Of a stretch of DNA of 64,000 bases, positions 1,099-21,552 are shown piece after piece. The translations under genes were made by a program, and so were the position numbers. The notes beneath the pieces are model-generated. The model worked only from the letters and a program-made list of their open reading frames with translations. It had not been told where the DNA came from and made no database searches. The stretch covers positions 83,680-147,679 of IMG/VR virus record IMGVR_UViG_3300045988_100686; one strand, given 5' to 3'. Positions within the stretch are counted from its first letter, which is position 1. Every line of letters starts with the position of its first letter. Source of the stretch: a virus.

Positions 1099-1611
1099 TC
1101 ATCCTTTTGGCATCTGTTTTACTGCGTCAGCAATTGTTTTATATAGAAGAGCTCCAGTTGCTACATTACCTGCAGTAGCTAGCGCTCCAGCGGCACGGGT
1201 CTCATTCTTTGTAATCCCAAGATCCCTAAAGTTTAATGTACCAGACCCATTCTGGATTCTTTGCTTGATTGTCTTGTAAGTGATTAAGAATGATGGTGCT
1301 GAAGCAATAAGTGATGCTACTTGTAGTAAATGTGGTTTTTGACGTGCACTAATAAGTTGTCCAATGTCAATCGTTGTTCTAATTGCACCTTTGATAGCCA
1401 AAGCAGCGACAAGAACAAAGATTTTACGAATAACAAGCTCTTTTTTGCTCAGCTGAAATCCATCTGTTATCTCTTCTTTTGACATTACTGTATGATCTGG
1501 GATTAAGTAAATAGCTGCTACACAGACTACTAGGGGAATACCCTTGCTTATTAAAAACCGTTTTACTTGTTCTCCAATTATATTTGCGAGCATTTGTTCG
1601 TCTCTGCCCAT
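1099..1611 (-). CDS. hypothetical membrane protein (170 aa)
   Basis: ORF track. The start ATG overlaps the TAA of the upstream RNAP gene (TAATG). Hydrophobic segments are present. Confidence 0.5.
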   Translation of the reverse strand: MGRDEQMLANIIGEQVKRFLISKGIPLVVCVAAIYLIPDHTVMSKEEITDGFQLSKKELVIRKIFVLVAALAIKGAIRTTIDIGQLISARQKPHLLQVASLIASAPSFLITYKTIKQRIQNGSGTLNFRDLGITKNETRAAGALATAGNVATGALLYKTIADAVKQMPKG

Positions 1612-4313
1612 TAGTACCTCCCGTCTTTACCTTTTCCGAATCCTGTTCCGCGTGCGTAGGAAGGAATAGGATTATAAGAGTGTAATGGACTACGTGATTG
1701 TGTAGCAGCGTTATCAATAAGCTTCTCTTTTAAGTATTTAAATCCAAAGTTAGCCATCCAATCATGTTTGTAGGTTGGGGCTTTATTGGTACCCTTCTGG
1801 AAGGGAACAAACTTTGGTGGACGCTTGCTAGGATTCTTGCGAATATCTGCTGCTAGCTGGTTATAGTCTACTACGTCTCCTTCAATGAGATCATCAAAAT
1901 CTCCCGGATCAATAATCTGTACGTAGTTTATTAATCCACGAGCGATTACCTCAAAGTTTTTCTTTACACTATCGAGTCCTGCACCATGGTACAGAGTATC
2001 AAGACTCTGAATAAACTGCTTGCGACCAGTATCTATGCCTTTGTAAGGTACAACCTTGCTAATGTTTAGAATACCGTCTGTTAATGGGTCGCCAGCTTCT
2101 ACTCTATCCCCAACCTTTACTTTCAGTGTTCTTGTTGGCGGTATGTAGTACTTCTTACGGCCTATGTATACGTTCTGTCCGCCTGCAGGTGCTGCCTGTA
2201 TGTTTGTGATTGTTCCAGATACTTCAGTAATAACTGCTGCACCACTAAACTTAGTGGACATATTAAAGAACGCCTTTACCGTGTTAAAACCAATTGCCTC
2301 ACCTGCTGCAGTACCTGCTGTATGTTTAGATGACAGGCCTAACTGTGTAAAAGGTTCTGAAATAGCGTGAGCAGATACTACACCTACATTTTCACCGATA
2401 TCAGGGAATTTCAATTTCTCGTTGTACCCGTAGCAATATTGGCATACACCATCATGTGCTTCACATGTAGCTGGGCTACGTACCTCAACCTGAGGAACTC
2501 CACGACGTTTTAATTGTTCATAATAGTTGGCATCGATAAACTTGTTTGTCTTCGCCTCAACACGGTTAATGATATTCTTAGTATCGTTAATGTCACGTAC
2601 TAAACCACGTTTACATCCGCAATCCTTTTTGGTAACTACGATATCAAGTACGTTGCCAATAAGTTCTTTTGCTAATGCGCCTGCAGGAGCTACGGATAGC
2701 TTTGCACCAACAGTACCTTTACGGGTGCCATAGGATGATACAAAGTAATCGGCAGGACTTAGACCCTCGTTGTATGATGTGTGAATCAAGGAAGGAATAA
2801 GTTTATCTTTAGGATCTGCTACTACTGTAGGACTAGTTATGATCTGCATTACTTGTCCTTTTGACCCCTTGGAGCCTGTATATGCCCACTGCTGGAATGT
2901 GTTGTCAGTTGCCTCATCTGTGAGTTTCTGTGCAAATGCCTGAGCTTTACGTAATATCTTGCCTTTTTCTGCATCGACTTGTTTGGGTGTAAGATCTTTG
3001 CGTTTGTCAATATCTGCCAGCTCTTGGTCAATCTTATTGAAGTATATGTTACGCTTTTTCTTCAACTCATCCATATCGAAGTCAGTTGCTTTGTAAGATA
3101 CACCTAATCTATAGGCAAATAATGCTCCCAACTCTTTTAGACCATCAGCAATCCTGGTATATTCTTTTGGCCATCTCTGTCCTACCTGGGTAAGAAGGCC
3201 GCTCATTACGGATTTATTCCACACTTTGTCATAATTACGCAATGGCATTGGGAATAGCTCATTGATAAGTACTGCACCTGCAGTTGTCTTAAACTGTCTG
3301 TATTGAACAGGGGCGTCTGGCTTAATCATTCCCATGCGGATATTTTCGTGAAGCTGTTTAACGTTTTGTACAGGAGTGAATCGTGTACTTTTATCAAACG
3401 TTGGGAGAGTCTTTGTTGCTGCAAATAATCCAAACACTGATTCCTGCTGTGGTAACATCATAGGTCCCATGTTGCGGGGTGAGAATAAGTTGTGACTTGG
3501 AGTCATTTTCTCCAGTGCTTCTAACCTTGCTTCTTCCGTTGCAGGTACATGAAGCTGCATGGTATCATAAACTAGAATACCGTTGGCTATGAAAAGTGGA
3601 AACTCCGGGACCGTGAAGTCGTAAGTTATTTCTTCTCGGTCAACTTCTTCTACAGAAGTCACCTCATCCCATACATATGGCAGGTTTAAATATGGATTTG
3701 CTGGGTTTACCTTAGCTACATCACTGATCTGTACTAGTGCGCCATTCTCTGGTATTCTTACTGCGTTGTAGTCCAAGTATAAACGTGTGTTTACTATTTT
3801 GCAAAAGATACCCTGACGTGCTAGTATTACTTTAGCTAATTCTAGCTCTTGCTTATCCTTTACCTTCCAGTACATACTAGGATTTTCTGTGTTATCTGTG
3901 GTATCAAAGTGGACCATTGCTAACAATGCCGTGCCAAGATCATCTGTTGATAAATTTAGCATATAATATGAAAACTTGTTTGGTTTAAAGTTATCCATTG
4001 CAAACTTACGCATAGCTTTTGCTTGTGCAGTTTTCTTTGGAATATATGATATCATACGCATTATAGGCACGAATTTACCAAGTGCATCCTGGGGAGGTAA
4101 TGGAGCAAAAAATGTTTCACTTCCGTTTGTTGCCAATGAGTGGTCATCGGTTACTGTGATCTCGTAGCCACAAGAGGTGCAGATTCTGTACATCTTCCCA
4201 TGCTCTGTGTGTACACTTCGCTCAGTGTAATCCATGAATTCATTGGTGTTTGTAGCAGGGCAATAGGTTAATACTTTTCCCTTAACTACAGTTGAGTTAC
4301 TTTGGGTACTCAT
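1611..4313 (-). CDS. RNA polymerase beta-prime C-terminal portion, preceded by a 250-aa split-intein C-fragment
   Basis: After residue 250 the protein reads TMQLHVPATEEARLEALEKM, which matches beta-prime QMAVHVPLSxEAQxEA directly after NADFDGD. The N-terminal 250 aa carry intein block B (ITVTDDHSLAT) and blocks F/G (ITYDFTVPEFPLFIANGILVYD). GGAGG lies 12 nt upstream of the ATG. Confidence 0.8.
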   Translation of the reverse strand: MSTQSNSTVVKGKVLTYCPATNTNEFMDYTERSVHTEHGKMYRICTSCGYEITVTDDHSLATNGSETFFAPLPPQDALGKFVPIMRMISYIPKKTAQAKAMRKFAMDNFKPNKFSYYMLNLSTDDLGTALLAMVHFDTTDNTENPSMYWKVKDKQELELAKVILARQGIFCKIVNTRLYLDYNAVRIPENGALVQISDVAKVNPANPYLNLPYVWDEVTSVEEVDREEITYDFTVPEFPLFIANGILVYDTMQLHVPATEEARLEALEKMTPSHNLFSPRNMGPMMLPQQESVFGLFAATKTLPTFDKSTRFTPVQNVKQLHENIRMGMIKPDAPVQYRQFKTTAGAVLINELFPMPLRNYDKVWNKSVMSGLLTQVGQRWPKEYTRIADGLKELGALFAYRLGVSYKATDFDMDELKKKRNIYFNKIDQELADIDKRKDLTPKQVDAEKGKILRKAQAFAQKLTDEATDNTFQQWAYTGSKGSKGQVMQIITSPTVVADPKDKLIPSLIHTSYNEGLSPADYFVSSYGTRKGTVGAKLSVAPAGALAKELIGNVLDIVVTKKDCGCKRGLVRDINDTKNIINRVEAKTNKFIDANYYEQLKRRGVPQVEVRSPATCEAHDGVCQYCYGYNEKLKFPDIGENVGVVSAHAISEPFTQLGLSSKHTAGTAAGEAIGFNTVKAFFNMSTKFSGAAVITEVSGTITNIQAAPAGGQNVYIGRKKYYIPPTRTLKVKVGDRVEAGDPLTDGILNISKVVPYKGIDTGRKQFIQSLDTLYHGAGLDSVKKNFEVIARGLINYVQIIDPGDFDDLIEGDVVDYNQLAADIRKNPSKRPPKFVPFQKGTNKAPTYKHDWMANFGFKYLKEKLIDNAATQSRSPLHSYNPIPSYARGTGFGKGKDGRY
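3564..4313 (-). other. split intein C-fragment (blocks B, F, G; about 250 aa)
   Basis: TxxH block B motif at aa 55-58. The C-terminal NGILVYD is followed by a +1 Thr. The extein resumes with exact beta-prime spacing. Confidence 0.65.
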
Positions 4314-4470: not shown

Positions 4471-4830
4471 ATGATTCCTTTAAGTCAAATTTATAAGAGG
4501 GAGAAGATTATTCTTACAATAAAGAATAGTAAAGATCTTATTAAGGAAGTATCCATTAATGGAGTAAACTTACTTAGTAAGACTTTATCACTTATTGTTA
4601 ATCCTGATTTAAACTGTGACCTCTTCCTGTTGAGAACCACAAAGTCAGGAGGAATAGTCTTCGAGCAATCAACAAAAGGGAATATTAGAATTACGATCTC
4701 CTCTAATATTTCCCTTGAATCAACCACAGATAGACCTACAACAAATTTCATAAGGGTATCTCAACGAGAGAAAAAGAATAGGCAGTGGACAATCTGTGAG
4801 CGATTCTATACCTTGGAGATCAATAGTTAA
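4471..4830 (+). CDS. hypothetical protein (119 aa)
   Basis: ORF track. GGGGGGAG lies 9 nt upstream of the ATG. Confidence 0.4.
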   Translation: MIPLSQIYKREKIILTIKNSKDLIKEVSINGVNLLSKTLSLIVNPDLNCDLFLLRTTKSGGIVFEQSTKGNIRITISSNISLESTTDRPTTNFIRVSQREKKNRQWTICERFYTLEINS

Positions 4831-4849
4831 ACGAAAGAAGGATTTTATT

Positions 4850-5080
4850 ATGAACACTAATCTGACCCGCATTGTATTTATCTCTGGCCAAACTCAACCG
4901 TACGTATTCAGCCCGGACGACGGCGCAAATGATCTTACTGACGCTCAGATCTTGGAATGCATCGCTGCAACTGATCCGTCTGTTAACACTTCTGCTCGCC
5001 TGGCTTGGCAGCAAACCCAATACAATGGTGAGCAAGTTCTCTCCGCAACCTATGTGCCGCAAGCACAAACCAAAGGTTAA
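4850..5080 (+). CDS. small hypothetical protein (76 aa), high GC, ends in Gly; possible beta-grasp/ubiquitin-like
   Basis: GAAGGA lies 8 nt upstream of ATG 4850. Local GC is about 50% with ctg/ccg/cgc codons, unlike its neighbours. The C-terminus reads ...QAQTKG. Confidence 0.4.
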   Translation: MNTNLTRIVFISGQTQPYVFSPDDGANDLTDAQILECIAATDPSVNTSARLAWQQTQYNGEQVLSATYVPQAQTKG

Positions 5081-5280
5081 TCTGCTGGGTTTCTCTAATT
5101 AATTGATCTAGCCTTGTTAGGCTACGATTACTGTGTAGCATTTTCTGGTAAAAATTTAATATTGAATTAGAATATTATGATGGCATAATCGTTCTAAAGA
5201 CAATTGCATATTGAAAGACCTAGATAGTCGGTAATAGGTGAACAGAAAGACTTAATCTTCTACAAGTTATACGCAAGGGG

Positions 5281-5326
5281 TCTATGTAGTCTTCGGACTG
5301 CATAGATTCCCTAAAATTTTTTTTTA
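5281..5326 (+). terminator. possible intrinsic terminator (UUCG-loop hairpin with distal T9)
   Basis: The arms tctatgtagtc and gactgcataga flank a ttcg loop; a T-run follows 9 nt later. Confidence 0.3.
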
Positions 5327-5348
5327 GTACTTTGAAAGGAGGATAATA

Positions 5349-5633
5349 ATGGGTGTTCAGTCTGAAATAGATAAAGTTATAGGAGAACTTCCTGAGATTA
5401 AACCTCTCAGCTTTTATATTGAAGAGTTACGGAAGTATTTAGACACAACGACTCCTCTTGAGGAAATGTTTAAAAAGCCTTTCCCAGAAGAACTGATACG
5501 TAAATTTCTAGCTGCAAAACAAGATAATTCACAGAGAAGAAATGAGCTGCTCGTAAAGCAGGTCTGGGAGATTGTAGTTGATCTTCCTGTTGCACCTGTA
5601 CCAGAATCTAGTAAAAGGAGGAGAGTAATGTGA
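5349..5633 (+). CDS. hypothetical protein (94 aa), first gene of the plus-strand operon
   Basis: AAAGGAGG lies upstream. The stop overlaps the next start (ATGTGA). Confidence 0.5.
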   Translation: MGVQSEIDKVIGELPEIKPLSFYIEELRKYLDTTTPLEEMFKKPFPEELIRKFLAAKQDNSQRRNELLVKQVWEIVVDLPVAPVPESSKRRRVM

Positions 5634-7114
5634 GTAATGAAAATATGGCTTCAGGCTATATAAATTATATTGCTGATGCTAGTACCTCAGTAATTGGACG
5701 TAATAGAGGGAAGTGGGAATTGTCACAAAAGTATGTTCAGTATTTAGATGATACTACTGAATATGCACTTGGACTAATATTTGGACCTTATCAGCTTAAT
5801 CATTTTGGTTGCTACGTAGCAACTAGAATATTTTCTTCTATTCTTACTCCTGGTAAGAAAAACGGGTTAATGACACCCAATGAAGCTCGTGGAGCTATTG
5901 AAGATAATCTTTACTGTGATGTGAATTTGCCGACATTGTTTTTCAATGCCTTGGTGCTCTTAAAATTCATGCAGTTCGGAGACGATACTTTTGCTTCCCC
6001 TACAGCTTTCAAGTATATAAAACGAGTCCAGACAAGTGGATCCCGAGGAACTATTGTTAACATGAAAATTATTCCATTTGTATCTGGGCTTGTTACTCCA
6101 GAGACAATGCTTAAGGGAGTAAAGATCCTGTGTGCAATAGCTGCATTAAAACCAGAGGTATATGAAGCAGTTCAAGAAATATACAATGATATTAATAAAG
6201 AATTACTCAGAAATATAATGGTAAATGCATCTGAATTGCTTGACCTTAGGATAGAGAGTGGCAAAATTGCAATACCTATGTTTAAACTTGGTGCTCCTGG
6301 TATCCCGCTCGAACTTGTACTCGATGATTATAAGGAGTTTTCACTTAAGCTCGAAGAACTTGCCTCTAGAATTTTAGAGGCGTGCAATGGTAGCTTAGAA
6401 GATTTCCTTCAAGCTATATTTGCTCTTGACATTGATAATATAACTACCTATAAGGAGGAAAACACAATGATGGTTGTAACTGAAATACTGAGGAATCTGA
6501 TTAATAAAGGTATACTGATTACTCGTGATGGCAGACTGCTGTCCATCAACATTACTGATGAAGATACTGTTCAGGTTAATCCTTTCAATAATAATGATGC
6601 GGAACGCCCGACTATTGCAAATTTGACCATTGAACGTAACGGTACTACAGAGGAAATCATTACTCTGAAGGATGATAGATTAGAACATATTATTGATACC
6701 GCTCAAAACGTTCTGAATTCTAGTGTAAACAATGCTATCAACAATGACAGAAATGTCAGAGTACAGCGTGCTTCTATGGCATCTGCTACACCTGCTACAC
6801 CGGAAATGCGTAGAAATGCTGACGGGTCTATTTCTGTGCATAGAACAGTTGGCTCTTTCCGTATGTGGGCCCCAGCTACTCCTGCAGAGGCAGCTCAATT
6901 TGAGCGTACACAGCAACAACAAGCTCAACAAGATCAGCTTGCAGCTGGTGAGGATACAGAACGGGATGCCATTGTTGAAACCGTAGAAGATAGTCCTGAA
7001 GATATTGTCATGGTTTCTGTTGTGGAAAACAATAGTGTGCGTGTAAGACGTATGACTCGTGAAGAAGCTGAAGATCAAGAACTTGCTATCGTAAGTGTTA
7101 TTGAAAGACGGTGA
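5630..7114 (+). CDS. hypothetical protein (494 aa) with a Q-rich acidic C-terminus
   Basis: ORF track. It overlaps both neighbours, which suggests translational coupling. Confidence 0.6.
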   Translation: MSNENMASGYINYIADASTSVIGRNRGKWELSQKYVQYLDDTTEYALGLIFGPYQLNHFGCYVATRIFSSILTPGKKNGLMTPNEARGAIEDNLYCDVNLPTLFFNALVLLKFMQFGDDTFASPTAFKYIKRVQTSGSRGTIVNMKIIPFVSGLVTPETMLKGVKILCAIAALKPEVYEAVQEIYNDINKELLRNIMVNASELLDLRIESGKIAIPMFKLGAPGIPLELVLDDYKEFSLKLEELASRILEACNGSLEDFLQAIFALDIDNITTYKEENTMMVVTEILRNLINKGILITRDGRLLSINITDEDTVQVNPFNNNDAERPTIANLTIERNGTTEEIITLKDDRLEHIIDTAQNVLNSSVNNAINNDRNVRVQRASMASATPATPEMRRNADGSISVHRTVGSFRMWAPATPAEAAQFERTQQQQAQQDQLAAGEDTERDAIVETVEDSPEDIVMVSVVENNSVRVRRMTREEAEDQELAIVSVIERR

Positions 7115-7928
7115 TTATACAATGGCTATGAATATTAAAAAGATAGAATTTGAAGACAATTCTGCTGTAGTAACCATGAGGGATCCTGACGAACTTATTG
7201 GTCTTGTACGTAAAAGAGTGTCGATTGATGCTCTAATTCAAGCCCTTGGAAAGATTAGTACATCCCAATCTATGCTTATTCCTCCTAACTGCAGGGGCAT
7301 TTGGGAGACTAAAAACAATAAGTATTTCCTGTTTATCATCCCGGCACACATGGGCAAGACTGCCGTAGTGTGGTATAAAACTGACACTGATAACTATGGA
7401 GCTCCGGGTAGTAGTACTAAGTTGGAGAACCAGCCTGAACATATTCAGTCAATGTATGAAGACTCAGAAGACAGTGACTACATTAGAGTGTTCAACACTC
7501 CATTCCCAGATGCGTGTGTGTTGATTAAAATGACAAAGGCTGGTAGCAATAAACTTATGTTTAATGATATCAGAGCATGGTCTATTAAGAGTACTATGCT
7601 TCCTCTAGATAAAACAGCAGTATACCGCTGGCCGTTCTTTAATATGTATGGTGATGCAAGAGTATGCATTGGTGATATCCCCAGAGAGTATCCTAATGTA
7701 GAATCTGTTGCTAGTATTATTAATTACCTATATATTGGCGTAGGTAACCATGATCTTGATCATACTCCATATGTAATTCCTGATAATAAGTTTGGAATCA
7801 AAAATTCTTTTCAGTTGGTCAAATACCTTGATGAAAACAAGTTGACTGTATTTCCAAGGGAGTTACTGTGTAGTTTTGGTACATCGATCATTGAAACAGT
7901 AGAAAATATTGTTGCTAATGGAAATTAA
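7095..7928 (+). CDS. putative E2-like (UBC-fold) ubiquitin-conjugating-like protein
   Basis: FFNMYGDARVCIGDI resembles the UBC active site HPNIxxxGxICLDIL (Asn, Gly, Cys flanked by aliphatics, Asp). It directly precedes the JAB and E1 genes. Confidence 0.45.
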   Translation: MLLKDGDYTMAMNIKKIEFEDNSAVVTMRDPDELIGLVRKRVSIDALIQALGKISTSQSMLIPPNCRGIWETKNNKYFLFIIPAHMGKTAVVWYKTDTDNYGAPGSSTKLENQPEHIQSMYEDSEDSDYIRVFNTPFPDACVLIKMTKAGSNKLMFNDIRAWSIKSTMLPLDKTAVYRWPFFNMYGDARVCIGDIPREYPNVESVASIINYLYIGVGNHDLDHTPYVIPDNKFGIKNSFQLVKYLDENKLTVFPRELLCSFGTSIIETVENIVANGN

Positions 7929-9793
7929 TGGAGGTAAAAATAATGGCAGTTCCAAACCAATATAATAAATATGCTTCTTTATATACTGTGCCCAAAAAGC
8001 CAGAACTCACAGACGTCCAAAAACGTCTTATTGAACGTATGCAACGTAGTCGCTGCAAAATCTGGGAGTCCTATGCTGCGTATACTGCAGCTGATGAATC
8101 TGATAAGAAACCAGACAATTACTTCCCAACTAAAACTGGTTGGGGTATTGCGCGCAAGCGTGTTCTCAATGGTAATAGTGTGGAGTTCGTTACAACTGTT
8201 CCAGAATGTCCGCTGGTTGATGAAATCCAACCCAAAGTTGTTCTTGATATTCATAATAAAATCCCTGGATCTCTGCTCCAGGAGATTCTTGCAAACTTTA
8301 ACAAAGTATGCGAGGACTCTAATAATGAGTGTGCTGCTCAGATTTACCGTGAGCGAGATGGTGAAAGAAAGTATTTCATTTATTACCCTGAACAAAAGGT
8401 GTCTACTGCTCAAGTAACCTATACTCATGATCCACAGCTCATGGAACTCGCAAAGGCATATGACCTCATCATGGAGCTGCATTCCCATGATTCTATGGGT
8501 GCATTCTGGTCTGGCACAGATGACAGTAATGAGAACACTTGTGGATTCTACATGGTAATTGGCAGATTTAACTCTTCTGTAGTTGAGTACAAATGCCGTG
8601 CAAAACTTGATAAACTGTATGCTGATTTTAATTGCTCTGAAATCTTTGATTTCGGTGACACACCTGAAGAACAAATCCTTACTCGTGAAAACTTTATTGC
8701 TCCGAATGATGAACTGGATAAGAAGATCACAAAAGAAAGCCTTACTTATTATAATGGTGCGTATCAAGCTTGTTATGACATGTGGAACTATGGTGGTTAT
8801 TCTTATCAAGGATACAATGACTATAATTATGGTAAATCAACTAAGAAATCTCAGAGATACCTTGCTAAAACAGAACTGGCTGCACGTAAACGCTTGATGG
8901 CTAAATTGAAGAATGCTCCGGAATCCATCTTCCCGGAAGACGCTCTTTATAATGAGCTCTGGGATCATGCAGACTATATCAAAGCCAGAAAACGTTGGGA
9001 ATGCTGTGGGTACTATGATAACCAGGAGGCCATGAAGGAATGCTGGAAACGAATCCCAAAAAACCAGGCAGGCGCGGAAGAGGAGGTGAGTCAAGACGCC
9101 GTCGTTGCCTCTGATTATGTAACTCGTATGAGCAAGTGCTACTCTGCAGATGGGTTCCAAAATACCCATACAGCTGGTGGAGTTGCCACTGGCATTGAAA
9201 CTGCGGAATATCTTGCTGGTAATGGAGATGAGGCAGCTGCACGTTATGGCACGCTTCCGGGCAAGATTCAACAATACAGTAATTTTGATTTAGATCTTGG
9301 CACTGCTGATGTGAATGACCAAGACTACAATGATAATCTTAATATGGCTGTGGCTAGCAGAACTGAGTCCCAGTCTAACATTGAGACATTCTTGCAGGAA
9401 GGAATGGGCGGGGTCCGTGAAGAGACTGAAAACAAATTTATTGCTAATGTAATGAATATTGCGTTTCTTCACACCCCGTCAGCCAGTATCAACGTCGGAG
9501 TGTTCTGGGAGTTGCTTACACCGGTTGAGAAAACTAGACTGGCAAAAGCATTCCACTGCTCTGTTATGGATCTTGCTACTCTGCTTATTGGCAGCAGCGC
9601 TGTTGTTGCATCTCCTGATGTAGCAGAGTTCCTGTATAAGTGCATCCTTGGTGATGCTAAGTATGTAGAATGTAAGCTTGGTCTTATTACCAGTAAGGTC
9701 ATGGCTGAAAAGCCGTCTACTGCTGCTCAATTTGTAGCACTCATCCATGAGATGCTTGAGGTTGAAAGAGATGTTAAGGAGGCAAAGGAATGA
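7928..9793 (+). CDS. JAB/MPN (JAMM) metalloisopeptidase domain protein (621 aa)
   Basis: A complete JAMM motif is present: E...HSH-DSMGAFW-S-GT-D (HxHx7Sx2D). A large Cys/Trp-rich C-terminal extension follows. The start overlaps the E2-like stop (TAATG). Confidence 0.7.
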   Translation: MEVKIMAVPNQYNKYASLYTVPKKPELTDVQKRLIERMQRSRCKIWESYAAYTAADESDKKPDNYFPTKTGWGIARKRVLNGNSVEFVTTVPECPLVDEIQPKVVLDIHNKIPGSLLQEILANFNKVCEDSNNECAAQIYRERDGERKYFIYYPEQKVSTAQVTYTHDPQLMELAKAYDLIMELHSHDSMGAFWSGTDDSNENTCGFYMVIGRFNSSVVEYKCRAKLDKLYADFNCSEIFDFGDTPEEQILTRENFIAPNDELDKKITKESLTYYNGAYQACYDMWNYGGYSYQGYNDYNYGKSTKKSQRYLAKTELAARKRLMAKLKNAPESIFPEDALYNELWDHADYIKARKRWECCGYYDNQEAMKECWKRIPKNQAGAEEEVSQDAVVASDYVTRMSKCYSADGFQNTHTAGGVATGIETAEYLAGNGDEAAARYGTLPGKIQQYSNFDLDLGTADVNDQDYNDNLNMAVASRTESQSNIETFLQEGMGGVREETENKFIANVMNIAFLHTPSASINVGVFWELLTPVEKTRLAKAFHCSVMDLATLLIGSSAVVASPDVAEFLYKCILGDAKYVECKLGLITSKVMAEKPSTAAQFVALIHEMLEVERDVKEAKE

Positions 9794-11295
9794 AGAAAAC
9801 TGTGTTAGCTATCGGGCCTGCTAGTCCGTATGTGAATCTCTTGGCAACTGTTCAAGAGCATTTAAATGACTTAAGTGTCATTAAACCTAATTTTAATAAC
9901 CTTCATATCATTCAGCTCGGTGCTGGTGGTACTGGCGGTTATGTAGCGTATGAAATACTTCGTATGCTTGGTAATATTCCAGAGGTGTTAAAACCGTATA
10001 TCCATTATACACTGATAGATGGTGATACGTATGAGCCAAAGAATATTGGCAGACAACTTTGCTGTGAAGATGATATCGGTAAGTATAAAGCTCAGGTCCT
10101 CGTTGAAGAGTATGGAGAACTCTTTGGTGTTACTCCAGACCAAGCGTCTCATATCGATGAGTATTTTACTGCTATCAGCCAGCTGGCTGTTCTTCCAAAA
10201 TTCCCTCTGCCAATCTGGTCTGTATTTGTAGACGATGAAGTAGAAAAGTTCTTCAAAGACTCTGAAGCTGCAGTTGCACTTAATTCTAAACAGCCACATA
10301 TCAATGCAACAGCTACGTCATTTATCATTATTGACTGTGTTGACAAAAATGCTCCGCGTAAACTATTACATGATTACTTTACAGATATCTCCAGTTTGCC
10401 CAGTACTTTGGCGCGTCTGAACTATTGTTGCAATGCTGTTCCTGACTGTGATAAGATCACTGCTACTGGGCAGCAAATCATTGCACATAACAACGGTGGT
10501 AACAGCCTGCTTGGAAGTATGTACGGTGTCACCCCGATTCGTGATATCTACATCATCTCATCCGGCAATGGCAAGTATACTGGCCAAGTATCCTGGGGAA
10601 GAAAAAGCTTCCTTGGTAACTCCAGTGGTTCTATGCACTACAAGGATATCTTTGGTGACAAGGATGTATCTTCTATTATTGGACCTAAGATTAATACGAA
10701 TGATGAAGTAGAGGCTGTCGATATTACTCCGGGTATGACAGACGCTGATGTAAACCAGTTGCGGCTTAAAGCATTGGCTGAGGAGTATTTTACACCGTCT
10801 AATGTAAAGAGATTCCAGGATAATGTATTCCAAGAAATTGTGGATCCTGCTACTGGCAGATTGTCAAATGGTTACATTAAGTCTATCCCGATTCCAATTA
10901 CTAACCCAGAGGAACCTGAGCTTGAAACTGGACACCCGATGCTCAAAAACATGAATATGTTCATGTCTGCTTTTATGTCTACACCTACTCCGTATGACAG
11001 GTTCCCGGAGCTTACAGACCTTGAGATTGATGCAAGAGAAGAGGCGATGAGCTGCGCGGAGCGTGCAGAACATAATGTACAGTCTATCAATGCTAATAAA
11101 ACTGCTGCAGCTCTTGTAGTAAATTACTTCACATCTATCTTTAATGGTATGTATATGTTTGAAAAGGAAGTACCCGTTCTTACTACTGAGACTACACGTT
11201 TCAACATATTAACGGGCGAGTACTCTTCTGACCCGATTACTACGGATTCTCTGCGTATCCCTGTGGAAACACGCAAAAGAGTTCGCGCATTTTAA
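9790..11295 (+). CDS. E1-like ThiF/MoeB-family adenylyltransferase (501 aa)
   Basis: Motifs IIQLGAGGTGGYVAYEI (Rossmann GxGxxG), LIDGDTYEPKNIGRQL and EDDIGKYKAQVLVEEY match ThiF/MoeB/E1 signature blocks. ATGA overlap with the JAB gene. Confidence 0.7.
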   Translation: MKKTVLAIGPASPYVNLLATVQEHLNDLSVIKPNFNNLHIIQLGAGGTGGYVAYEILRMLGNIPEVLKPYIHYTLIDGDTYEPKNIGRQLCCEDDIGKYKAQVLVEEYGELFGVTPDQASHIDEYFTAISQLAVLPKFPLPIWSVFVDDEVEKFFKDSEAAVALNSKQPHINATATSFIIIDCVDKNAPRKLLHDYFTDISSLPSTLARLNYCCNAVPDCDKITATGQQIIAHNNGGNSLLGSMYGVTPIRDIYIISSGNGKYTGQVSWGRKSFLGNSSGSMHYKDIFGDKDVSSIIGPKINTNDEVEAVDITPGMTDADVNQLRLKALAEEYFTPSNVKRFQDNVFQEIVDPATGRLSNGYIKSIPIPITNPEEPELETGHPMLKNMNMFMSAFMSTPTPYDRFPELTDLEIDAREEAMSCAERAEHNVQSINANKTAAALVVNYFTSIFNGMYMFEKEVPVLTTETTRFNILTGEYSSDPITTDSLRIPVETRKRVRAF

Positions 11296-11335
11296 GCTAA
11301 CGGTGGGCTCTTTGTGAGTCCACCTTTTATTTTTT

Positions 11336-12325
11336 ATGGAGGTATGCTATATGCAAATCCCAAGTTGGTTTATGGATAAGTATTTTCCAGAAGGTAGCGC
11401 ACGCTCTGCTATAGTCTGTGATGACGGAGAATTAAAATCATTCTTACGAATGGAAGCAGATGATAAGAATGCTGGGTGCGAAATCTTTGGTGATTATAGC
11501 TACGTGGAAGATATCATGGCAGTAATGTGTGAACCTGTTGTGGCCCATGAATTATCACTGCCAGCGCTTGAAGACTTAGTTCCTGATAAATATCATATAT
11601 ATAGGGTTATTCCACCATATTATCTGCAGTTGTGGTACAAATATCAGCTGTCAAATAGGGGCATGACAAGTAGCTATACAGAAGATAAATTTAAGGTTGA
11701 TTTTATTACTGCGTATATCATTGAGTTCCCATGGGAACAGATGTCAAGTTGTAGCAGAAGAAAAACGAGATCAAAAAATGATGTAGACCACTGTATGTAT
11801 GACAAAAATTTATTTAATGCTTGGTGTTATCAAAAAGATACTATTGAGGCTGTAGCACAGTTTCTTAATATCTGTAGAATCCCTGCATCTGAGGAAGAGA
11901 TTGCGAAACTATTTATATCTAGGTTTATCTGGTATAGCTTTGTGACTCAATTGGATCTGCTGGATAGCATAGAAATAGGGGAATGGCTTGATTTTTATAA
12001 TGGAGCACCGTATAGATCAAGATGCGTTGATAGAAACTATGAGTTGAATTCTAGAAAAAGTTGTGGCCACTGGGGTGGTCTCATGGCTGCAGGGATTAAG
12101 ATAAGCCGTATCCTGGAATATCCTAGAAATGCTGATTCAGTAAAATCTAGAGTCTTGCAAAGGGCTAGGCTCTTAGTTGTAATGTTTTGTATGTCCCAGT
12201 CACCCAGAACGGTGAAGCTGATCATTGAAGGTCTTATGACGTTTTCTGCGTCAATATCAGGTACATGGATGTTAAGCATCATTGAACCACTGGTAAGGGA
12301 GGTGGAGCCTTCATGGCTAAAATAA
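11336..12325 (+). CDS. hypothetical Cys-rich protein (329 aa)
   Basis: ORF track, same operon. Confidence 0.55.
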   Translation: MEVCYMQIPSWFMDKYFPEGSARSAIVCDDGELKSFLRMEADDKNAGCEIFGDYSYVEDIMAVMCEPVVAHELSLPALEDLVPDKYHIYRVIPPYYLQLWYKYQLSNRGMTSSYTEDKFKVDFITAYIIEFPWEQMSSCSRRKTRSKNDVDHCMYDKNLFNAWCYQKDTIEAVAQFLNICRIPASEEEIAKLFISRFIWYSFVTQLDLLDSIEIGEWLDFYNGAPYRSRCVDRNYELNSRKSCGHWGGLMAAGIKISRILEYPRNADSVKSRVLQRARLLVVMFCMSQSPRTVKLIIEGLMTFSASISGTWMLSIIEPLVREVEPSWLK

Positions 12326-14145
12326 ATGAGTTTACTATAGTGAGTGAGCTGAATGATGAGTTTAGTCTACGGGTATTTATGGAGTCGGGACAAAAGGTTG
12401 CTCAAGTTAATAATGTCTCTCATGATTTCTTAAGAGAGGCAATGCCTACTAGCAGGCTTGGAATAAGAACTCCAGGACTTGCTCCCTGGCCATCTAAATT
12501 TAAGGAAAATCCAGTTCCTGATGGATACTCTATTGCACTAAGTCATAAGTATACATTTGGGTCGATGTGTCTTAAGATGCTCTTGAACAAGCAAGCCAGA
12601 CACAGATATTTTGCGTTATTACTCGCGTTGTTTGGTAATAATGAAAATACCAGGGAACTTCTCACTGTAATGTTGTTAAGAACGAAGTTTACTGATGAAT
12701 TACGATATTTATGTGAGCAGCTTGACATTTCTCGTATGTCTGTTAGAACCTGGGATAGTGTGGCTATAGACAACAAGCCTGGCAGTGTAAAGTTTAATGA
12801 TGTTAGAAATTCTCCATGTAGTTGGTCGAGTGCACTTAGAAATGGATGTCTTGCTGACGGATATGTACCTCATCCGAACATATGGTTCAGAGATGTGAAA
12901 AATAAAAGTTTGTTTACTAAGATATCCGCTTGTGAGATGTTCCCTAATCTTGCTCCAAAGATCCTGGCAAGCATCCCTAAGTACCCTAAAGGAGGCAAGG
13001 TAGATAGAATTGTAGATATAAGGACTCAGATTCTGTTCAATATGCTGAGAAATGCATATGGACTCAAGTATGAGGATATCATTGTTGATAAGCAGCTAGA
13101 TCTTAATACATATGAAGTTCTATCTTCTCTCTGTGCTATTCTTACTGCTGCTGCAGGATTAGGCGGCAGGGTTTCTATTACTGATATCAGAGGAGTTGAT
13201 CCAGACTTAGATGTAAAATTAAGGTTTAGTCTCTGGTATCGTAATGTAAGATCAAGGATACTGACACTTCAAGGGAATTATGGTGTGGCAGGTGATGCCT
13301 GGCTTATGGACAAACTGCTTACTTCATTAGCTGTTGTAATGAATGCGGGGGATAAACAGGAAAGTGAATTGCTAACGTCGTGTGTACGAGCTGCAGTTGA
13401 TGAAAATGATCTCCAGGAAACCCTTGAGGGATGGGTGTCTAAGAGGAATATCAATATGTATCTTGGTGATACGAATACTTTAAACGCGGTGAATGTTCCC
13501 GCATCTACCTTGAGGAGCATTGAAGATGGGATAGATGACATTGTACAATCACTGTCTGACAAGGATAACATTGTTAAATGCCTAAAAGAACTGGTGCAGC
13601 TTCAGGAGTCTTCTATTAGTGGGAAGGCATTTGATCCTGTCACTACTACTAACTATACAAATATACAGTATAACAACAATGGACTTGTAACTGCGAGCCT
13701 GATTCCAATGATTACAAACAGATTCCAACTACTGGACTACATTTATAGAATGAGTACGTATAGAGAAAACGAGTTTATCTATGATACTATGGGAATCGTA
13801 AACAGATGCTCTAGGACTATAAGTTCCCATGTAAGTTCTTATGAATATAGTATAGGTATTTTGAAGAAATGGGAAGAGTTGCGGGATATTGCACTTGATC
13901 AGGTCTCACACAACGGTTCCGGGTATTTTTCAACTGAAATGTTGTATTGGAGTGCACTGGCTAGAGTTCTGGTAACCGACTGGCAACACTTCTGCAGAAT
14001 CAATGCAGGGAAATCCAGAGATGAGCTGTTTGAGATGTCAGTACTTACGGATAATCCATTCGCTGATATTGAGAACAGTGTCTGCCAAGAAATTGATGAG
14101 TATAAATCTGGATATGCAAGATGGCGTGAAAACAGGTTTAAATGA
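12313..14145 (+). CDS. hypothetical protein (610 aa), last gene of the operon
   Basis: ORF track. The ATGGCTAAAATAAATG overlap suggests coupling. A terminator follows. Confidence 0.6.
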   Translation: MAKINEFTIVSELNDEFSLRVFMESGQKVAQVNNVSHDFLREAMPTSRLGIRTPGLAPWPSKFKENPVPDGYSIALSHKYTFGSMCLKMLLNKQARHRYFALLLALFGNNENTRELLTVMLLRTKFTDELRYLCEQLDISRMSVRTWDSVAIDNKPGSVKFNDVRNSPCSWSSALRNGCLADGYVPHPNIWFRDVKNKSLFTKISACEMFPNLAPKILASIPKYPKGGKVDRIVDIRTQILFNMLRNAYGLKYEDIIVDKQLDLNTYEVLSSLCAILTAAAGLGGRVSITDIRGVDPDLDVKLRFSLWYRNVRSRILTLQGNYGVAGDAWLMDKLLTSLAVVMNAGDKQESELLTSCVRAAVDENDLQETLEGWVSKRNINMYLGDTNTLNAVNVPASTLRSIEDGIDDIVQSLSDKDNIVKCLKELVQLQESSISGKAFDPVTTTNYTNIQYNNNGLVTASLIPMITNRFQLLDYIYRMSTYRENEFIYDTMGIVNRCSRTISSHVSSYEYSIGILKKWEELRDIALDQVSHNGSGYFSTEMLYWSALARVLVTDWQHFCRINAGKSRDELFEMSVLTDNPFADIENSVCQEIDEYKSGYARWRENRFK

Positions 14146-14155
14146 TTTGTACTTA

Positions 14156-14188
14156 GACGAGAGTGAAATACCTCTCGTCGTTTTTTTT
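14156..14188 (+). terminator. rho-independent terminator
   Basis: The arms gacgagag and ctctcgtc flank a 9-nt loop, followed by T8. It lies 11 nt after the stop at 14145. Confidence 0.75.
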
Positions 14189-16043: not shown

Positions 16044-16533
16044 TAATATCTTCTAAATTGAGTTTTTCTCGTCTGGTCACAGATACCCATACGTTTGTCC
16101 ATGTTCTCACAGCCTTTTCCATGCCCCATGCACCTAGTGTGTGTGTAACAATAAGCACCACAACGGAGATAAAGCATATAGCTGAGAAATCATGGTTGCC
16201 AAGCATCATTACAGCGAGCATCGGGGTTACCGCACAGTTCACGATACCTGATGCCATTGCCACACGCCATTTGAATACGTATTTCTTTGATTGACGTCGA
16301 TCAGATAGCATATTTCGTTGCAGATTGATATACGCTATATATAGAATCATGCCAAGAATAAAGCATATCATGTGCGCTATCACTGTTAGCACCGATTCAA
16401 CCGTAAGATACTCATGAACAAGTGCCTCACTGACCAGCACTGTTATACTATTTTCCGGTATCTGATTCAAGCTCACCACCCATCCTTGCTGCGAGTTTTC
16501 GTTGCCTGGATCTGAGTACCGTGTAGGTAACAC
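15964..16533 (-). CDS. polytopic small membrane protein (holin-like candidate); true start uncertain
   Basis: ORF track. It has 3-4 hydrophobic helices and overlaps the downstream gene by 80 nt. Confidence 0.4.
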   Translation of the reverse strand: MLPTRYSDPGNENSQQGWVVSLNQIPENSITVLVSEALVHEYLTVESVLTVIAHMICFILGMILYIAYINLQRNMLSDRRQSKKYVFKWRVAMASGIVNCAVTPMLAVMMLGNHDFSAICFISVVVLIVTHTLGAWGMEKAVRTWTNVWVSVTRREKLNLEDISEEHLQYVDKDKDITEDGKRETKGSL

Positions 16534-17404
16534 CCAGGATGACCATGAGACCTACCGTAAATCCAATATTCACAAGGCCTCTAGCTATGATTGAACTAGT
16601 TTCCTTCAAATGGTCCTTTCCTAAAGCAGCACTAAAATCGTTTATTCTATGTATAGTCTCTGTTGACAGCGGCTGGACAGCGACAATCACAGCCAACGTA
16701 GAGTTTGCTGACTGCGTACCATCAGGGTTAGTATTGGCATTCCCGAACATATCAGCGTGATCATAGATATACGCAGGAGTAAGCAGATACACAGCCGACA
16801 GGTCTTTAACGCTGTTTACTACTTCTCCCGGCTGCATGACACTGATATCCCCTGTAACCTTGTCAATCATTGCTACACTCCCCTGTGGCATATTGAACAA
16901 CTGCGTCAGGTTTCTTTGAATACGTATAGGGTCAGAGCTGTCAGATGTAAAGTAAACACGCGTTTTGCTTATTACTGCCAAACGCACGTTCATACCTCCA
17001 GAGCACCATTTGTCAATATACTCATAGCAAGCCTTGGAAATATCCTTGTAAACTACATTATTATTGTTATCCAGAACAAAATAGTTATCAATGTCTTTAC
17101 GCAGCTGTCCTTGATTACCTGCATAATCACGTTCCAATTGCTCTGACACATCATCCCGTAGATTCCTGGAGTGGACAACTGAAAGTCTGATACTACTTTC
17201 TACAAGCTCGTTCTGGTAGTACTTACTAGCAGTCATAGCCTGAGCTTGCAGCTCTTTGTAATCCTCGTTTGTATGCTCAAGCTCAGACATCATTGTGTAC
17301 GCTGCAAACACTGCCACTACTGCAGTCATAAGCAACAAATATAAACAGTTACGGCGAATACCTACATTATGCCTATCAATATACTTCAATATATAACCTT
17401 TCAT
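16448..17404 (-). CDS. two-TM protein with a roughly 240-aa extracytoplasmic domain (sensor-like topology)
   Basis: TM segments lie near aa 21-39 and 278-298. The function is unknown. Confidence 0.5.
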   Translation of the reverse strand: MKGYILKYIDRHNVGIRRNCLYLLLMTAVVAVFAAYTMMSELEHTNEDYKELQAQAMTASKYYQNELVESSIRLSVVHSRNLRDDVSEQLERDYAGNQGQLRKDIDNYFVLDNNNNVVYKDISKACYEYIDKWCSGGMNVRLAVISKTRVYFTSDSSDPIRIQRNLTQLFNMPQGSVAMIDKVTGDISVMQPGEVVNSVKDLSAVYLLTPAYIYDHADMFGNANTNPDGTQSANSTLAVIVAVQPLSTETIHRINDFSAALGKDHLKETSSIIARGLVNIGFTVGLMVILGVTYTVLRSRQRKLAARMGGELESDTGK

Positions 17405-17416
17405 AGTCTCATCCCC

Positions 17417-18373
17417 TTAAGTCATAGCTTTCTTTGCCATAGATACTACCTTAGTGTCCTCATATACATACATTATTACATCCTCAGAAGACCGCTTATC
17501 ATTGATGTAGATTCCATCTGCAACATATGCTTTAGGGTTATTCACTGACATACTTAGTATTAACTGACTGCCCTTGTTTACTTTGTATATCCCTGGTTTA
17601 CCAAGGTTTGACTGAATAATAGTACCTTCTCCTGCTTCTATACTAACAGTACATGTTTCTCGTTTTCCTCCCTGTGAACTAGGGAGTCTCATAATATAAT
17701 ATTTGCATACATACGGTGTGATTACATTGAATTGTACCACTGATTGGCTAGCCGTACCAGTTTCTGATGAATCTTCCTTGTAACAGTACATCTGCCCACC
17801 AGTACCCGTAGGATAAATTTCTTTATCCCACTGTCCGAATTTTTTATATGCTTCATACCTGCCATTGCTAGAATACACACCAACAATATTGTGAAATTTA
17901 TGTACATGGTTTCTCATAATCGCTGTGGAGTTTACACTATGTACAAATGAGCCACCTTCTTTTCCTATTGGACATGCTCCACTCCAGCAAACAGCAATCC
18001 TCTGGCGTAGGTCCGGTGTTCCATTAACACCATCACAGATAACCCAGTTAGTTGGTACATCACCTAGTTCACCCGCCCATATAGCTATAGAATAGGGAGG
18101 AAAATCATCTTCGCTTAACAAGGATTCTATAAGATCTAGCTCTTTTATATATCCATCAATGAGATCTAGGAGCTCTGGGTAAAAAAATCCATTTTCCGTA
18201 GTTGTTACCCTTGCATGTTCATGGTCTCCCCTTGTACCAGCATGGCGATCCAGCGCTGTAACAGTAGTCTGTACATTGTCTCTCAGTTCTGTAACAAATT
18301 CTTTCTTGATCAGGATATTGTGATACAGTGTTTTATCTGTGTACTCATTGAGTACTACGTCTGAATTTGCCAT
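17417..18373 (-). CDS. tail fiber protein with phage tail-collar domain
   Basis: WVICDGVNGTPDLRQRIAV matches the tail-collar consensus (CDG...tPDLRGR). Confidence 0.6.
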   Translation of the reverse strand: MANSDVVLNEYTDKTLYHNILIKKEFVTELRDNVQTTVTALDRHAGTRGDHEHARVTTTENGFFYPELLDLIDGYIKELDLIESLLSEDDFPPYSIAIWAGELGDVPTNWVICDGVNGTPDLRQRIAVCWSGACPIGKEGGSFVHSVNSTAIMRNHVHKFHNIVGVYSSNGRYEAYKKFGQWDKEIYPTGTGGQMYCYKEDSSETGTASQSVVQFNVITPYVCKYYIMRLPSSQGGKRETCTVSIEAGEGTIIQSNLGKPGIYKVNKGSQLILSMSVNNPKAYVADGIYINDKRSSEDVIMYVYEDTKVVSMAKKAMT

Positions 18374-19947
18374 TACTGACTCACTCCTATTTCTCTAACC
18401 TGCACAGTTCCTCCAATTATTTGAGCTACTAGTGACGCTGAGGCCGCTGTTGCCTCAAGCTTAATAGTAACCAAATGTTTACCTTTATTTAAAGTCATAG
18501 ATGAATACACAGAATTAACCAGCATTTCCCCACTATCTACGTAAGAAAGAGTGTTCGATGCTTCTGTATGTCCATCCAACAGAACATCAACGTTAACTTC
18601 TGCGTCGTCTCTACGATATCCATAGAAATTACTAAAGACTTTCGGTGTGATTTTTACTCTATACGTACCAGATGAAGGTATTTCAAAGTTTACATTGGTC
18701 AAAACATACTTTGTATCCTTGCTCTTTACCTCAACAGTCTCAGAGAAAGGGATAGATATATTGACAATAGGTCCTGGGTCTACACCTATAGATTGAACAG
18801 CACCATTACTACGTGGATCATAAACCCTTCCTGACCATCCACGTTCGGTCACCGTGTAGTCAAGCACTTGCATACCAGGTATGTCATGATCGCTATCAAC
18901 AGTTAGCTTCGTACCATACAAGTAATCCTCATCAGTTACATACTCACCATCGATATAAGTTTTAACTAATTCATTCTGGTTGACTTTAACATTGATGATC
19001 TTGATACCTGTAACACCCACAACGTCCATATCGTCGTAAACCCTGACATAACATGGTGTACCACGACTTTCGCCAGCTACTGTTAGGCTGAGCATCTCAT
19101 GTGCTTCATCAGCACTGAATTCAATAAGTATTATCGTTCCAGATTTAACAGTCTTAGACTCTACTACAGCTCCGTCGATACTGATCTGCCCACCCTCTGT
19201 AGGCTGGTGAACTGTGATAACACAATCTTTGATATTATCATCCCCGCGCATGATAAACGGGACTTTGATGGTTCTAGGAAGCAACTTGTCAATGGTAAAG
19301 CTTGCATTGCCACCAACATAGTCAAACTCATCTTCAAAGTAGCAACTAGAGTTATCCCAGTCCCATGAGCTCAAACGAAGATCATTTGGGATTGGGTTTC
19401 TAAAACCTTCTCCCTTTTCTGTATCATTTGGATAACAGCACCAGCAATTATAAAACGTATGATGATGTGGGACAATTCCTGATGATTTTGCAAGAGTTTC
19501 ATTTATATTTGTTTCACCATTGGAGGAAGAATGGAGGGGATATGTCGCTGTAACACTACCACCTAATACATATTTACCACGTATATCAGGGGTTCCATTT
19601 TGGCCATTACAATAAAACCACTTATCAGGAGGAGCACTCGGCAGTCCATCATACATAACTATAATCCTAGCAGGTACACGTTGATCAACCCTGGATTCTA
19701 GCTCTGATAGCCTATTTTCTATATCACTGATTTCCTTGACTATCTCTGGAGTAATAAATCCAGGCTGCGTGAGAGTTACAGCTTTATGCGCTTCATAGCT
19801 CTCTAGGTTACGGTGATACTCAAGGTCTACATCAATTAATTTTATGTTATTTTCTAATTCAACAAAATGTTTTTCTGATACGGGAGTTTCACCCGAATAT
19901 ATTGGGTTGTCTATCCAGGTGACAACACCAGATATTTGTCTTGCCAT
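18373..19947 (-). CDS. tail fiber protein with tail-collar domain (524 aa)
   Basis: The sequence WFYCNGQNGTPDIRGKYVLGG is present. It is a paralog of its neighbours. Confidence 0.6.
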   Translation of the reverse strand: MARQISGVVTWIDNPIYSGETPVSEKHFVELENNIKLIDVDLEYHRNLESYEAHKAVTLTQPGFITPEIVKEISDIENRLSELESRVDQRVPARIIVMYDGLPSAPPDKWFYCNGQNGTPDIRGKYVLGGSVTATYPLHSSSNGETNINETLAKSSGIVPHHHTFYNCWCCYPNDTEKGEGFRNPIPNDLRLSSWDWDNSSCYFEDEFDYVGGNASFTIDKLLPRTIKVPFIMRGDDNIKDCVITVHQPTEGGQISIDGAVVESKTVKSGTIILIEFSADEAHEMLSLTVAGESRGTPCYVRVYDDMDVVGVTGIKIINVKVNQNELVKTYIDGEYVTDEDYLYGTKLTVDSDHDIPGMQVLDYTVTERGWSGRVYDPRSNGAVQSIGVDPGPIVNISIPFSETVEVKSKDTKYVLTNVNFEIPSSGTYRVKITPKVFSNFYGYRRDDAEVNVDVLLDGHTEASNTLSYVDSGEMLVNSVYSSMTLNKGKHLVTIKLEATAASASLVAQIIGGTVQVREIGVSQ

Positions 19948-19959
19948 GTGTTGTCCTCC

Positions 19960-21540: not shown

Positions 21541-21552
21541 CCTAATCCCTCC

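Follow-up and report, generated by a model that had tools for sequence, protein, structure and literature searches.

Does a bacteriophage bring into the infected cell a complete pathway for attaching a ubiquitin-like protein to other proteins? To our knowledge, bacterial conjugation of ubiquitin-like modifiers (Ubls) has so far been shown for host defence only (CBASS Cap2, Bil/Bub), and a phage with such a pathway would reverse the usual picture in that the tagging machinery is brought by the virus, not the host. The question is raised by a 64,000-nucleotide stretch of the IMG/VR record IMGVR_UViG_3300045988_100686 (positions 83,680-147,679; this whole stretch is called the window, and coordinates are those of the window). 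Three consecutive genes in it had been read in an earlier note as encoding an E2-like protein, a JAB/JAMM zinc isopeptidase and an E1-like adenylase, that is, as a phage-borne module for ubiquitin-like conjugation. All three enzyme families were matched, and the modifier itself was found nearby. With a probability of about 0.7, we read the locus as a complete phage-encoded Ubl conjugation cascade of the PRTRC (ParB-Related, ThiF-Related Cassette) or Prok_Ub - Prok-E2_D - Prok-JAB - ThiF lineage. PRTRC proteins are covered by the NCBIfam models TIGR03735-03738 and by the Pfam families Prok_Ub, Prok-E2_D, Prok-JAB and ThiF.

Three adjacent genes encode predicted E2, JAB and E1 proteins

Alignments were built with homologues down to ~20-25% identity, taken from metagenomic relatives, the phages vB_BceM_WH1 and Arash, and canonical PRTRC proteins. 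The compared loci are numbered L001-L012; L008 and L009 are metagenomic, L010 is vB_BceM_WH1, L011 is Arash and L012 is a Bacillus thuringiensis plasmid.

The E2-like carrier, of the Prok-E2_D / PRTRC_B type, is encoded on the plus strand at 7095-7928 (277 residues; probable start ATG 7122). The segment FFNMYGDARVCIGDI (residues 181-195, nucleotides 7635-7679) includes the candidate catalytic Cys191 (7665-7667), which lies within the motif P-F-x-N-x(7)-C-x-G. Pro180, Asn183, Cys191, Gly193 and Leu221 are invariant in all 40 sequences aligned. The protein scores 25.5 bits with Pfam Prok-E2_D (cut-off 25; E = 1.3e-5), and its best NCBIfam match is PRTRC_B at 25.4 bits (E = 7.9e-6), under the 131.45-bit cut-off. 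An hhalign comparison of the E2 family with PRTRC_B gave a probability of 94% (E = 1.3e-7) with the cysteine motifs aligned. Because the bit score falls under the cut-off yet the profiles align at 94% probability, the two are assigned as homologous, not as equivalogs. The AlphaFold2 model (pLDDT 80, pTM 0.71) shows an N-terminal β domain, a helix, a four-strand meander, the cysteine loop and three helices. We regard the core that follows the N-terminal β domain as UBC-like; this call is good, yet the least secure of those for the four parts. A Foldseek search of the model against the PDB returned insignificant matches and small β-barrel matches to the N-terminal domain, and the E2 profile found nothing meaningful among PDB sequences. 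A match of that profile to AphA (PDB, E = 0.01) was dropped, the cysteine not being aligned.

The JAB/JAMM zinc isopeptidase is encoded on the plus strand at 7928-9793 and comprises 621 residues, or 616 from the probable start ATG 7943. Its metal-site signature is made up of Glu134 and the segment HSHDSMGAFWSGTDD (residues 185-199, nucleotides 8480-8524). The full JAMM signature (Glu134, His185, His187, Ser195 and Asp198) is unchanged in 10 sequences with identities as low as 20%, and so is Lys111-Ile-Pro113. The JAB core spans approximately residues 110-230 and is followed by a C-terminal extension of ~390 residues. Pfam Prok-JAB matched with 26.2 bits (cut-off 25; E = 8e-6). The best NCBIfam match was PRTRC_A at 41.0 bits (E = 1.5e-10), under its 101.8-bit cut-off, and the JAB profile gave nothing meaningful against PDB sequences.

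The E1-like adenylase (ThiF family, PRTRC type; 501 residues) is encoded on the plus strand at 9790-11295. It contains IIQLGAGGTGGYV at residues 40-52, IDGDTYEPKNIGRQL at residues 76-90 and EDDIGKYKAQVLVEEY at residues 93-108. The GxGGxGG motif and Asp79, Arg88, Gln89, Lys100, Asp185 and Arg190 do not vary, and they line up with the nucleotide site of MccB, UBA3, Cap2 and Uba1. When the E1 profile was compared with the PDB, MccB, UBA3, Cap2, Uba1 and BubCD matched over positions 30-108, with MccB/ThiF-type adenylases scoring best. Pfam ThiF matched with 30.8 bits (cut-off 28.1; E = 2.1e-7) and the best NCBIfam match was PRTRC_ThiF (TIGR03736) at 61.8 bits (E = 6e-17), under the 144.75-bit cut-off. 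Compared with forms of 256-300 residues, the protein carries two large insertions (~200 residues). Cys422 (11053-11055) lies in the sequence M-S-C-A-E-R-A, of which Ser421-Cys422 is invariant and present also in the ThiF proteins of the Ralstonia and Parabacteroides PRTRC cassettes. This cysteine probably follows the 'GQ' strand, which we take to be the site of the reactive cysteine in ThiF, MoeB and Atg7 and the point of insertion of the CYS domain in canonical E1s. Cys422 is thus a putative thioester cysteine.

Each of the E2-like, JAMM and ThiF/E1 motifs named in the earlier note was therefore present at the expected residues, and the JAMM and E1 residues at catalytic positions proved invariant across homologues. 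The catalytic motifs of all the enzymes stay invariant among homologues that share only 25-35% identity. Judged by these family assignments, the finding of three adjacent genes that match three enzymes of one system is far beyond chance.

A 76-residue modifier is conserved far above its enzymes

The earlier note had offered a 76-residue open reading frame (ORF) ending in TKG (4850-5080, plus strand) as a candidate Ubl. Its conserved position, the invariant KG end and the β-grasp model identify this ORF as the Ubl. Every relative has a homologue at the corresponding position, and the C-terminal Q-[TNSV]-K-G is invariant. The window protein ends in AQTKG directly before the stop codon, with Lys75 as its sole lysine. 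In relatives the K-G is followed by nothing, by one cysteine or by a variable residue pair (AF, SL, SK or LF). The structural model shows a β-grasp fold with the conserved glycine at the C terminus. An hhalign comparison of the window Ubl profile with PRTRC_C / Prok_Ub-type sequences aligned the two through the terminal KG (probability 65%, E = 6e-5).

The Ubl is conserved far above its enzymes. The window protein is 100% identical to that of the relative L001, where flanking genes are 71-92% identical, and the exact window sequence was found on 140 contigs across many samples. Ubiquitin likewise is far better conserved than its enzymes. The position of the only lysine also has a practical consequence: trypsin would cut after Lys75 and leave a single-glycine remnant (+57.02 Da) on the modified lysine, which is isobaric with carbamidomethylation, and standard proteomics would therefore have missed such conjugates.

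The cassette comprises two transcription units

The conserved cassette spans 4471-11295 and is arranged in two transcription units, as defined by the BLASTP conservation pattern together with terminator-like hairpins. The short first unit opens with a gene for a conserved, β-rich 119-residue protein (4471-4830, plus strand) and continues with the Ubl gene. A terminator-like hairpin of ~15 bp with a UUCG loop, followed by a T-run, lies between this unit and the enzyme unit (5277-5325, plus strand; dG -25.8 kcal/mol, z -6.9, none of 200 shuffles equally stable). A stable hairpin 3' of the Ubl gene is also present in the relatives L001, L005 and L006, and in 4 of 6 lineages overall. The enzyme unit opens with a gene for a 94-residue helical protein (5349-5633), continues with a gene for a 494-residue protein (5630-7114) and then the E2, JAB and E1 genes, all on the plus strand, and is closed by a second terminator-like hairpin with a T-run directly after E1 (11302-11335, plus strand; dG -17.2, z -5.1), which is kept in L001. 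The separate terminators suggest separate dosage of the two units, so that the modifier could be made in excess over the enzymes. A sigma-70 promoter scan stayed at background (47 found against 37.6 ± 6.3 expected), and no promoter is claimed.

The three enzyme genes had been described as overlapping and translationally coupled. The ORFs do lie where they had been placed; the likely starts, however, are ATG 7122 for E2 and ATG 7943 for JAB, so only the JAB and E1 genes truly overlap, by ATGA at 9790-9793. Both starts agree with the gene calls in relatives, and the JAB start is preceded by GGAGG 7 nucleotides upstream. The view that 5349-14145 forms a single seven-gene operon does not hold: hairpins lie at 5277-5325, 11302-11335 and 14156-14187, and the last two genes of that block have a counterpart in the closest relative only.

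BLASTP detected conservation across relatives of the 119-residue protein, the Ubl, the 94-residue protein, E2, JAB and E1, and weakly of the 494-residue protein. The 119-residue protein occupies the same position in L001, L003, L005 and L006 (29-92% identity, E = 1e-16 to 1e-82). The 94-residue protein keeps its position in all relatives with weak sequence conservation (E = 1e-7 to 0.02), and a small ORF stands at the same place in the PRTRC, Bacillus and Arash cassettes. The 494-residue protein has an acidic, low-complexity C-terminal part and diverges fast: it shows ~22% identity to its counterparts in L003 and L006 (E = 1e-8), and the family alignment has just 2 invariant columns. It had no family match in Pfam, PHROGs, PADLOC or NCBIfam. 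A mid-size ORF fills its slot in every related cassette. Homology to the mid-size ORFs of the Bacillus and PRTRC cassettes could not be shown, and the correspondence is one of position only. We infer that the 494-residue protein may serve as a specificity or adaptor factor. The likeliest specificity elements in the cassette are the 94- and 494-residue proteins, the 390-residue JAB extension and the ~200 residues of E1 insertions.

Searches of the cassette proteins against PHROGs, in a scan that covered all but the 119-residue protein, gave no match, and megablast of the E2-JAB-E1 triad against 50,697 phage records gave none either. Long repetitive matches in a representative search (P0226, P0244 and others) were discarded as spurious repeats.

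The cassette is a divergent and enlarged PRTRC variant

The arrangement had been called undescribed. This does not stand, as a Ubl, a family D E2, a JAB protein and an E1 in this order are PRTRC, the operon type 6d of Iyer, Burroughs & Aravind (2006), which consists of a Ubl, JAB, E1, an E2 without the HPN histidine and a fast-diverging helical protein (PMC1779556). PRTRC cassettes are common on plasmids and integrative and conjugative elements (ICEs), and one has been noted in a Burkholderia prophage (2026; PMC13366799). On the Ralstonia plasmid the order is C, a 75-residue protein, a 295-residue protein, B, A and ThiF; in the window it is Ubl, 94-residue protein, 494-residue protein, E2, JAB and E1. 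Canonical PRTRC_C (Prok_Ub) proteins end in GQKG or GTKG on the Ralstonia and Parabacteroides plasmids examined; in the Parabacteroides stretch no JAB (protein A) is annotated.

The window and PRTRC thus share the four protein types, a collinear order, the Ubl tail [GQ]-[TQ]-K-G, the E2 motif P-F-F-N-x7-C-x-G and the S-C motif of E1, and PRTRC models are the best NCBIfam match for all three window enzymes. They differ in several respects. The window proteins score 2.3-5 times under the family cut-offs, and the window Ubl is missed by Prok_Ub. No ParB match was found with Pfam and NCBIfam, either among the cassette ORFs or close by. The window JAB has 616-621 residues versus ~196, and the window E1 has 501 versus ~256, making them 2-3 times larger. 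The replicon is a ~150-kb tailed phage, not a plasmid or ICE. With scores under the equivalog thresholds, no ParB, and JAB and E1 proteins enlarged 2-3-fold, the window cassette is placed as a divergent PRTRC variant. What is new, as far as these comparisons reach, is a conserved, much-enlarged, ParB-less module of apparent PRTRC type in large virulent-type phages. The cassette goes unmentioned in a comparative jumbo-phage review of 2021 (PMC7824862).

Resemblance to better-known systems, which had been invoked for this locus, amounts to analogy. BilABCD likewise combines a Ubl, an E2, a JAB deubiquitinase and an E1; its E2 has a catalytic cysteine and lacks the canonical HPN, and its Ubls have a glycine conserved throughout and then a short non-conserved overhang that the JAB enzyme removes (PMC10557695; 10.1101/2023.09.04.556158), comparable to KG plus 0, 1 or 2 residues here. 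Bil, in contrast, is a host-encoded defence, with an E1 composed of IAD, AAD and CYS domains. Type II CBASS Cap2/Cap3, part of a mobile defence island, resembles the window cassette in pairing E1/E2 chemistry with a JAB protease, and the window E1 weakly matches Cap2; however, Cap2 is a fused E2-E1, the CD-NTase itself takes the place of the conjugated 'Ubl', and the window has neither a CD-NTase nor an effector. PADLOC, run on the window proteins, returned weak Cap2 E1-E2 matches (up to 27.6 bits) that did not reach beyond the ATP-binding region of E1; it matched no Bil model, nothing for E2, JAB or the Ubl, no Cap3 and no CD-NTase. The lambda gpI/gpK pair also consists of phage-encoded β-grasp and JAB-domain proteins near tail genes (Iyer 2006; PMC1779556), whereas it comes without E1 or E2, gpK additionally has NlpC/P60, and no sequence relationship was detected.

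Related cassettes occur in gut phages, Bacillus phages and Salmonella phage Arash

Relatives of the window phage are contigs of 146-170 kb from human-gut and other metagenomes, some of them catalogued in IMG/VR. In relatives whose enzymes share 25-37% identity with those of the window, the cassette still adjoins the RNA polymerase β' gene. In one distant relative an SLH (S-layer homology) protein is encoded near the cassette (L007:16676-17956), which hints at a host with an S-layer-anchoring wall.

Shorter E1 homologues led to cassettes in L008, L009, Bacillus phage vB_BceM_WH1 (gp211-gp216) and a 235-kb plasmid of B. thuringiensis israelensis. These four cassettes all begin with a poly-Ubl gene, followed by a small ORF, a ~530-residue ORF, E2, JAB and E1. 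The poly-Ubl gene (gp211 at L010:1778-2677 in vB_BceM_WH1; L012:1969-2718 in the plasmid; L009:2555-3430 and L008:2-820 in the metagenomic contigs) encodes 4-5 tandem repeats of ~57 residues, every one ending in [AQ]GTKG, and then a short non-repeat tail. Pfam Prok_Ub matches gp211 in five stretches (94.5 bits). The poly-Ubl genes are predicted to encode polyubiquitin-like precursors that need an endoprotease cut after KG, and would directly mirror, in prokaryotic viruses, the polyubiquitin genes of eukaryotes. The Bacillus cassettes share with the window the six-gene layout ending in E2-JAB-E1, the GTKG ends and the large-phage replicon. They differ in the 4-5-fold polyprotein that needs cleavage and in their short enzymes (E1 ~290 residues, JAB 400-460 residues), and their proteins are 17-27% identical to those of the window. 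Related cassettes also occur on many non-mobilisable Bacillus plasmids, and Bacillus phage Edson is another cultivable carrier. The annotation of gp211 as 'virion structural protein' has no traceable basis, and the corresponding paper was not found in the literature. A 66-residue ORF upstream in L009 was rejected as a Ubl: it has no terminal glycine and does not align, and the actual modifier is the neighbouring poly-Ubl gene.

Among isolates, Salmonella phage Arash (OQ632216.1) has the terminase closest to that of the window (27.6% identity). It encodes E2 (gp248c), JAB (gp247c) and E1 (gp246c). An unannotated 66-residue ORF (L011:107-307, plus strand), which falls on the complement of OQ632216.1 at about 180513-180713, ends in RRTGTKG. 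It sits just upstream of gp250c-gp246c, which are a mid-size ORF, a small ORF, E2, JAB and E1, and overlaps the annotated 72-residue gp251c (L011:102-320) in another frame. The annotated gp251c looks to be in the wrong frame, and the cultured Arash thus has every part of the cassette, the Ubl gene having escaped annotation. That Arash gp246 and gp248 are labelled 'structural protein' was not taken to indicate virion association; the published proteome lists 116 proteins and includes ribonucleotide reductases (PMC10585845).

A proposed conjugation pathway and its alternatives

By analogy with characterized cascades, the 76-residue Ubl would be made from its own short, terminator-bounded transcript. 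E1 would bind ATP, adenylate the C-terminal Gly76 and hold the Ubl as a thioester at Cys422, from which it would pass to Cys191 of the E2-like protein and then onto lysines of target proteins. JAB would expose the terminal glycine where the gene encodes extra residues (1-2 in relatives, and the poly-Ubl of the Bacillus phages), and probably also strips the Ubl from conjugates.

Several points weigh against the reading of the locus as a complete conjugation cascade. The window Ubl matched neither Pfam Prok_Ub nor TIGR03738, and its hhalign probability is only 65%. It ends exactly at Gly76, which leaves JAB no processing job, and the role of JAB here would therefore have to be deconjugation. The placement of Cys422 relative to the adenylation site is predicted from sequence, and neither a target nor an E3 was identified. 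The function of PRTRC has also been called unstudied (PMC13366799), and our literature search found no functional study of it.

What such a cascade would do for the phage can be approached through its distribution. We prefer a core phage function, the modification of phage-made or host proteins in the infected cell, over accessory counter-defence, because the cassette is syntenic, is kept across deep divergence and turns up again in phages that infect Salmonella, Bacillus and gut anaerobes. A dedicated counter-defence against host Bil or CBASS, in which JAB would deconjugate host marks or the phage Ubl would cap target lysines or act as a decoy for them, has points in its favour: phage tail-tip proteins are the targets of host Bil tagging (10.1101/2023.09.04.556158), the cassette has tail-fibre genes for neighbours, its E1 is weakly Cap2-like, and the PRTRC relatives reside on plasmids and ICEs, which must also overcome host defences. 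Typical anti-defence genes vary, however, whereas this cassette remains syntenic and core-like down to 25-37% identity in phages whose hosts are very different. For such a purpose a deconjugase would be enough by itself, yet the full set of E1, E2 and Ubl is retained with invariant catalytic residues, and JAB, E2 and the Ubl show no Bil or Cap3 likeness in PADLOC. We consider counter-defence unlikely.

Two other explanations were considered. The Ubl and E1 might form a sulfur-carrier or adenylation system of the ThiS/MoaD/MccB kind, serving for instance the thiolation of nucleic acids or cofactors or peptide modification, with E2 and JAB as accessories. MccB and ThiF-type adenylases are indeed the best PDB matches of the E1 profile, and β-grasp proteins ending in glycine can likewise be sulfur carriers (Iyer 2006; PMC1779556). 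An invariant-cysteine E2-like protein and an intact JAMM site are, however, hallmarks of conjugation and deconjugation; Pfam and NCBIfam found no sulfurtransferase, rhodanese or biosynthetic gene in the cassette, and the poly-Ubl precursors suit a stoichiometric tag, not a catalytic carrier. A sulfur-carrier function is accordingly quite improbable. Least probable of all is a plasmid-style maintenance or partition function, which would be relevant to a phage-plasmid lifestyle only. PRTRC owes its name to its ParB partner and has been described as a partitioning cassette (PMC13366799), and related cassettes are carried by the 235-kb B. thuringiensis plasmid-prophage and by many non-mobilisable Bacillus plasmids. 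Against it, Pfam and NCBIfam turned up no ParB homologue within the window cassette or close to it, its enzymology gives no hint of DNA segregation, and Arash carries the cassette though reported to be without lysogeny genes (PMC10585845).

Returning to the conjugation cascade as a core phage function, we see about an even chance that large RNA polymerase-encoding phages, among them a widespread human-gut family, Arash and the Bacillus jumbo phages, covalently tag virion or infected-cell proteins through it. If true, the cascade would count as the first viral ubiquitylation system in prokaryotic viruses, and the long-orphan PRTRC cassette would have a function. Arash, vB_BceM_WH1 and Edson, being cultivable and mutable carriers, make PRTRC function experimentally approachable.

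Neighbouring genes in the window

The window belongs to a tailed phage with a ~150-kb replicon and its own RNA polymerase. Both the phage origin and the tail-fibre neighbourhood claimed in the earlier note were confirmed, and several tail-fibre genes are encoded in the window. No tRNA and no Rfam element was found in the window.

Two genes follow E1 on the plus strand (11336-12325 and 12313-14145, encoding 329 and 610 residues), and a terminator hairpin lies at 14156-14187 after the last gene of the block. Neither protein had a family match, and no counterpart of the two genes was detectable at the same position in L003, L005 and L006. The stretch 11336-14145 has the appearance of a lineage-specific insert between two terminators.

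On the minus strand, 1611-4313 encodes a 900-residue C-terminal fragment of RNA polymerase β' (Rpb1 domains 3-5) with an intein-splicing domain near its N terminus. This fragment, including the intein, is kept in distant relatives, always as the divergent neighbour of the Ubl cassette. A 1371-residue RNA polymerase β/β'-like protein is encoded at 52442-56557, the large terminase at 59906-61522, and a 539-residue protein of a PHROG 'polymerase' family, with a weaker match to a PHROG annotated as reverse transcriptase, at 62238-63857, all on the plus strand. Five consecutive minus-strand genes occupy 16448-23514 (318, 318, 524, 526 and 653 residues). Of the four genes scanned, three (17417-21540) have in common a tail-fibre/tail-protein domain at the N terminus (phrog_5795, phrog_8469), and the 653-residue member had no match. 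The array looks like a set of paralogous receptor-binding proteins.

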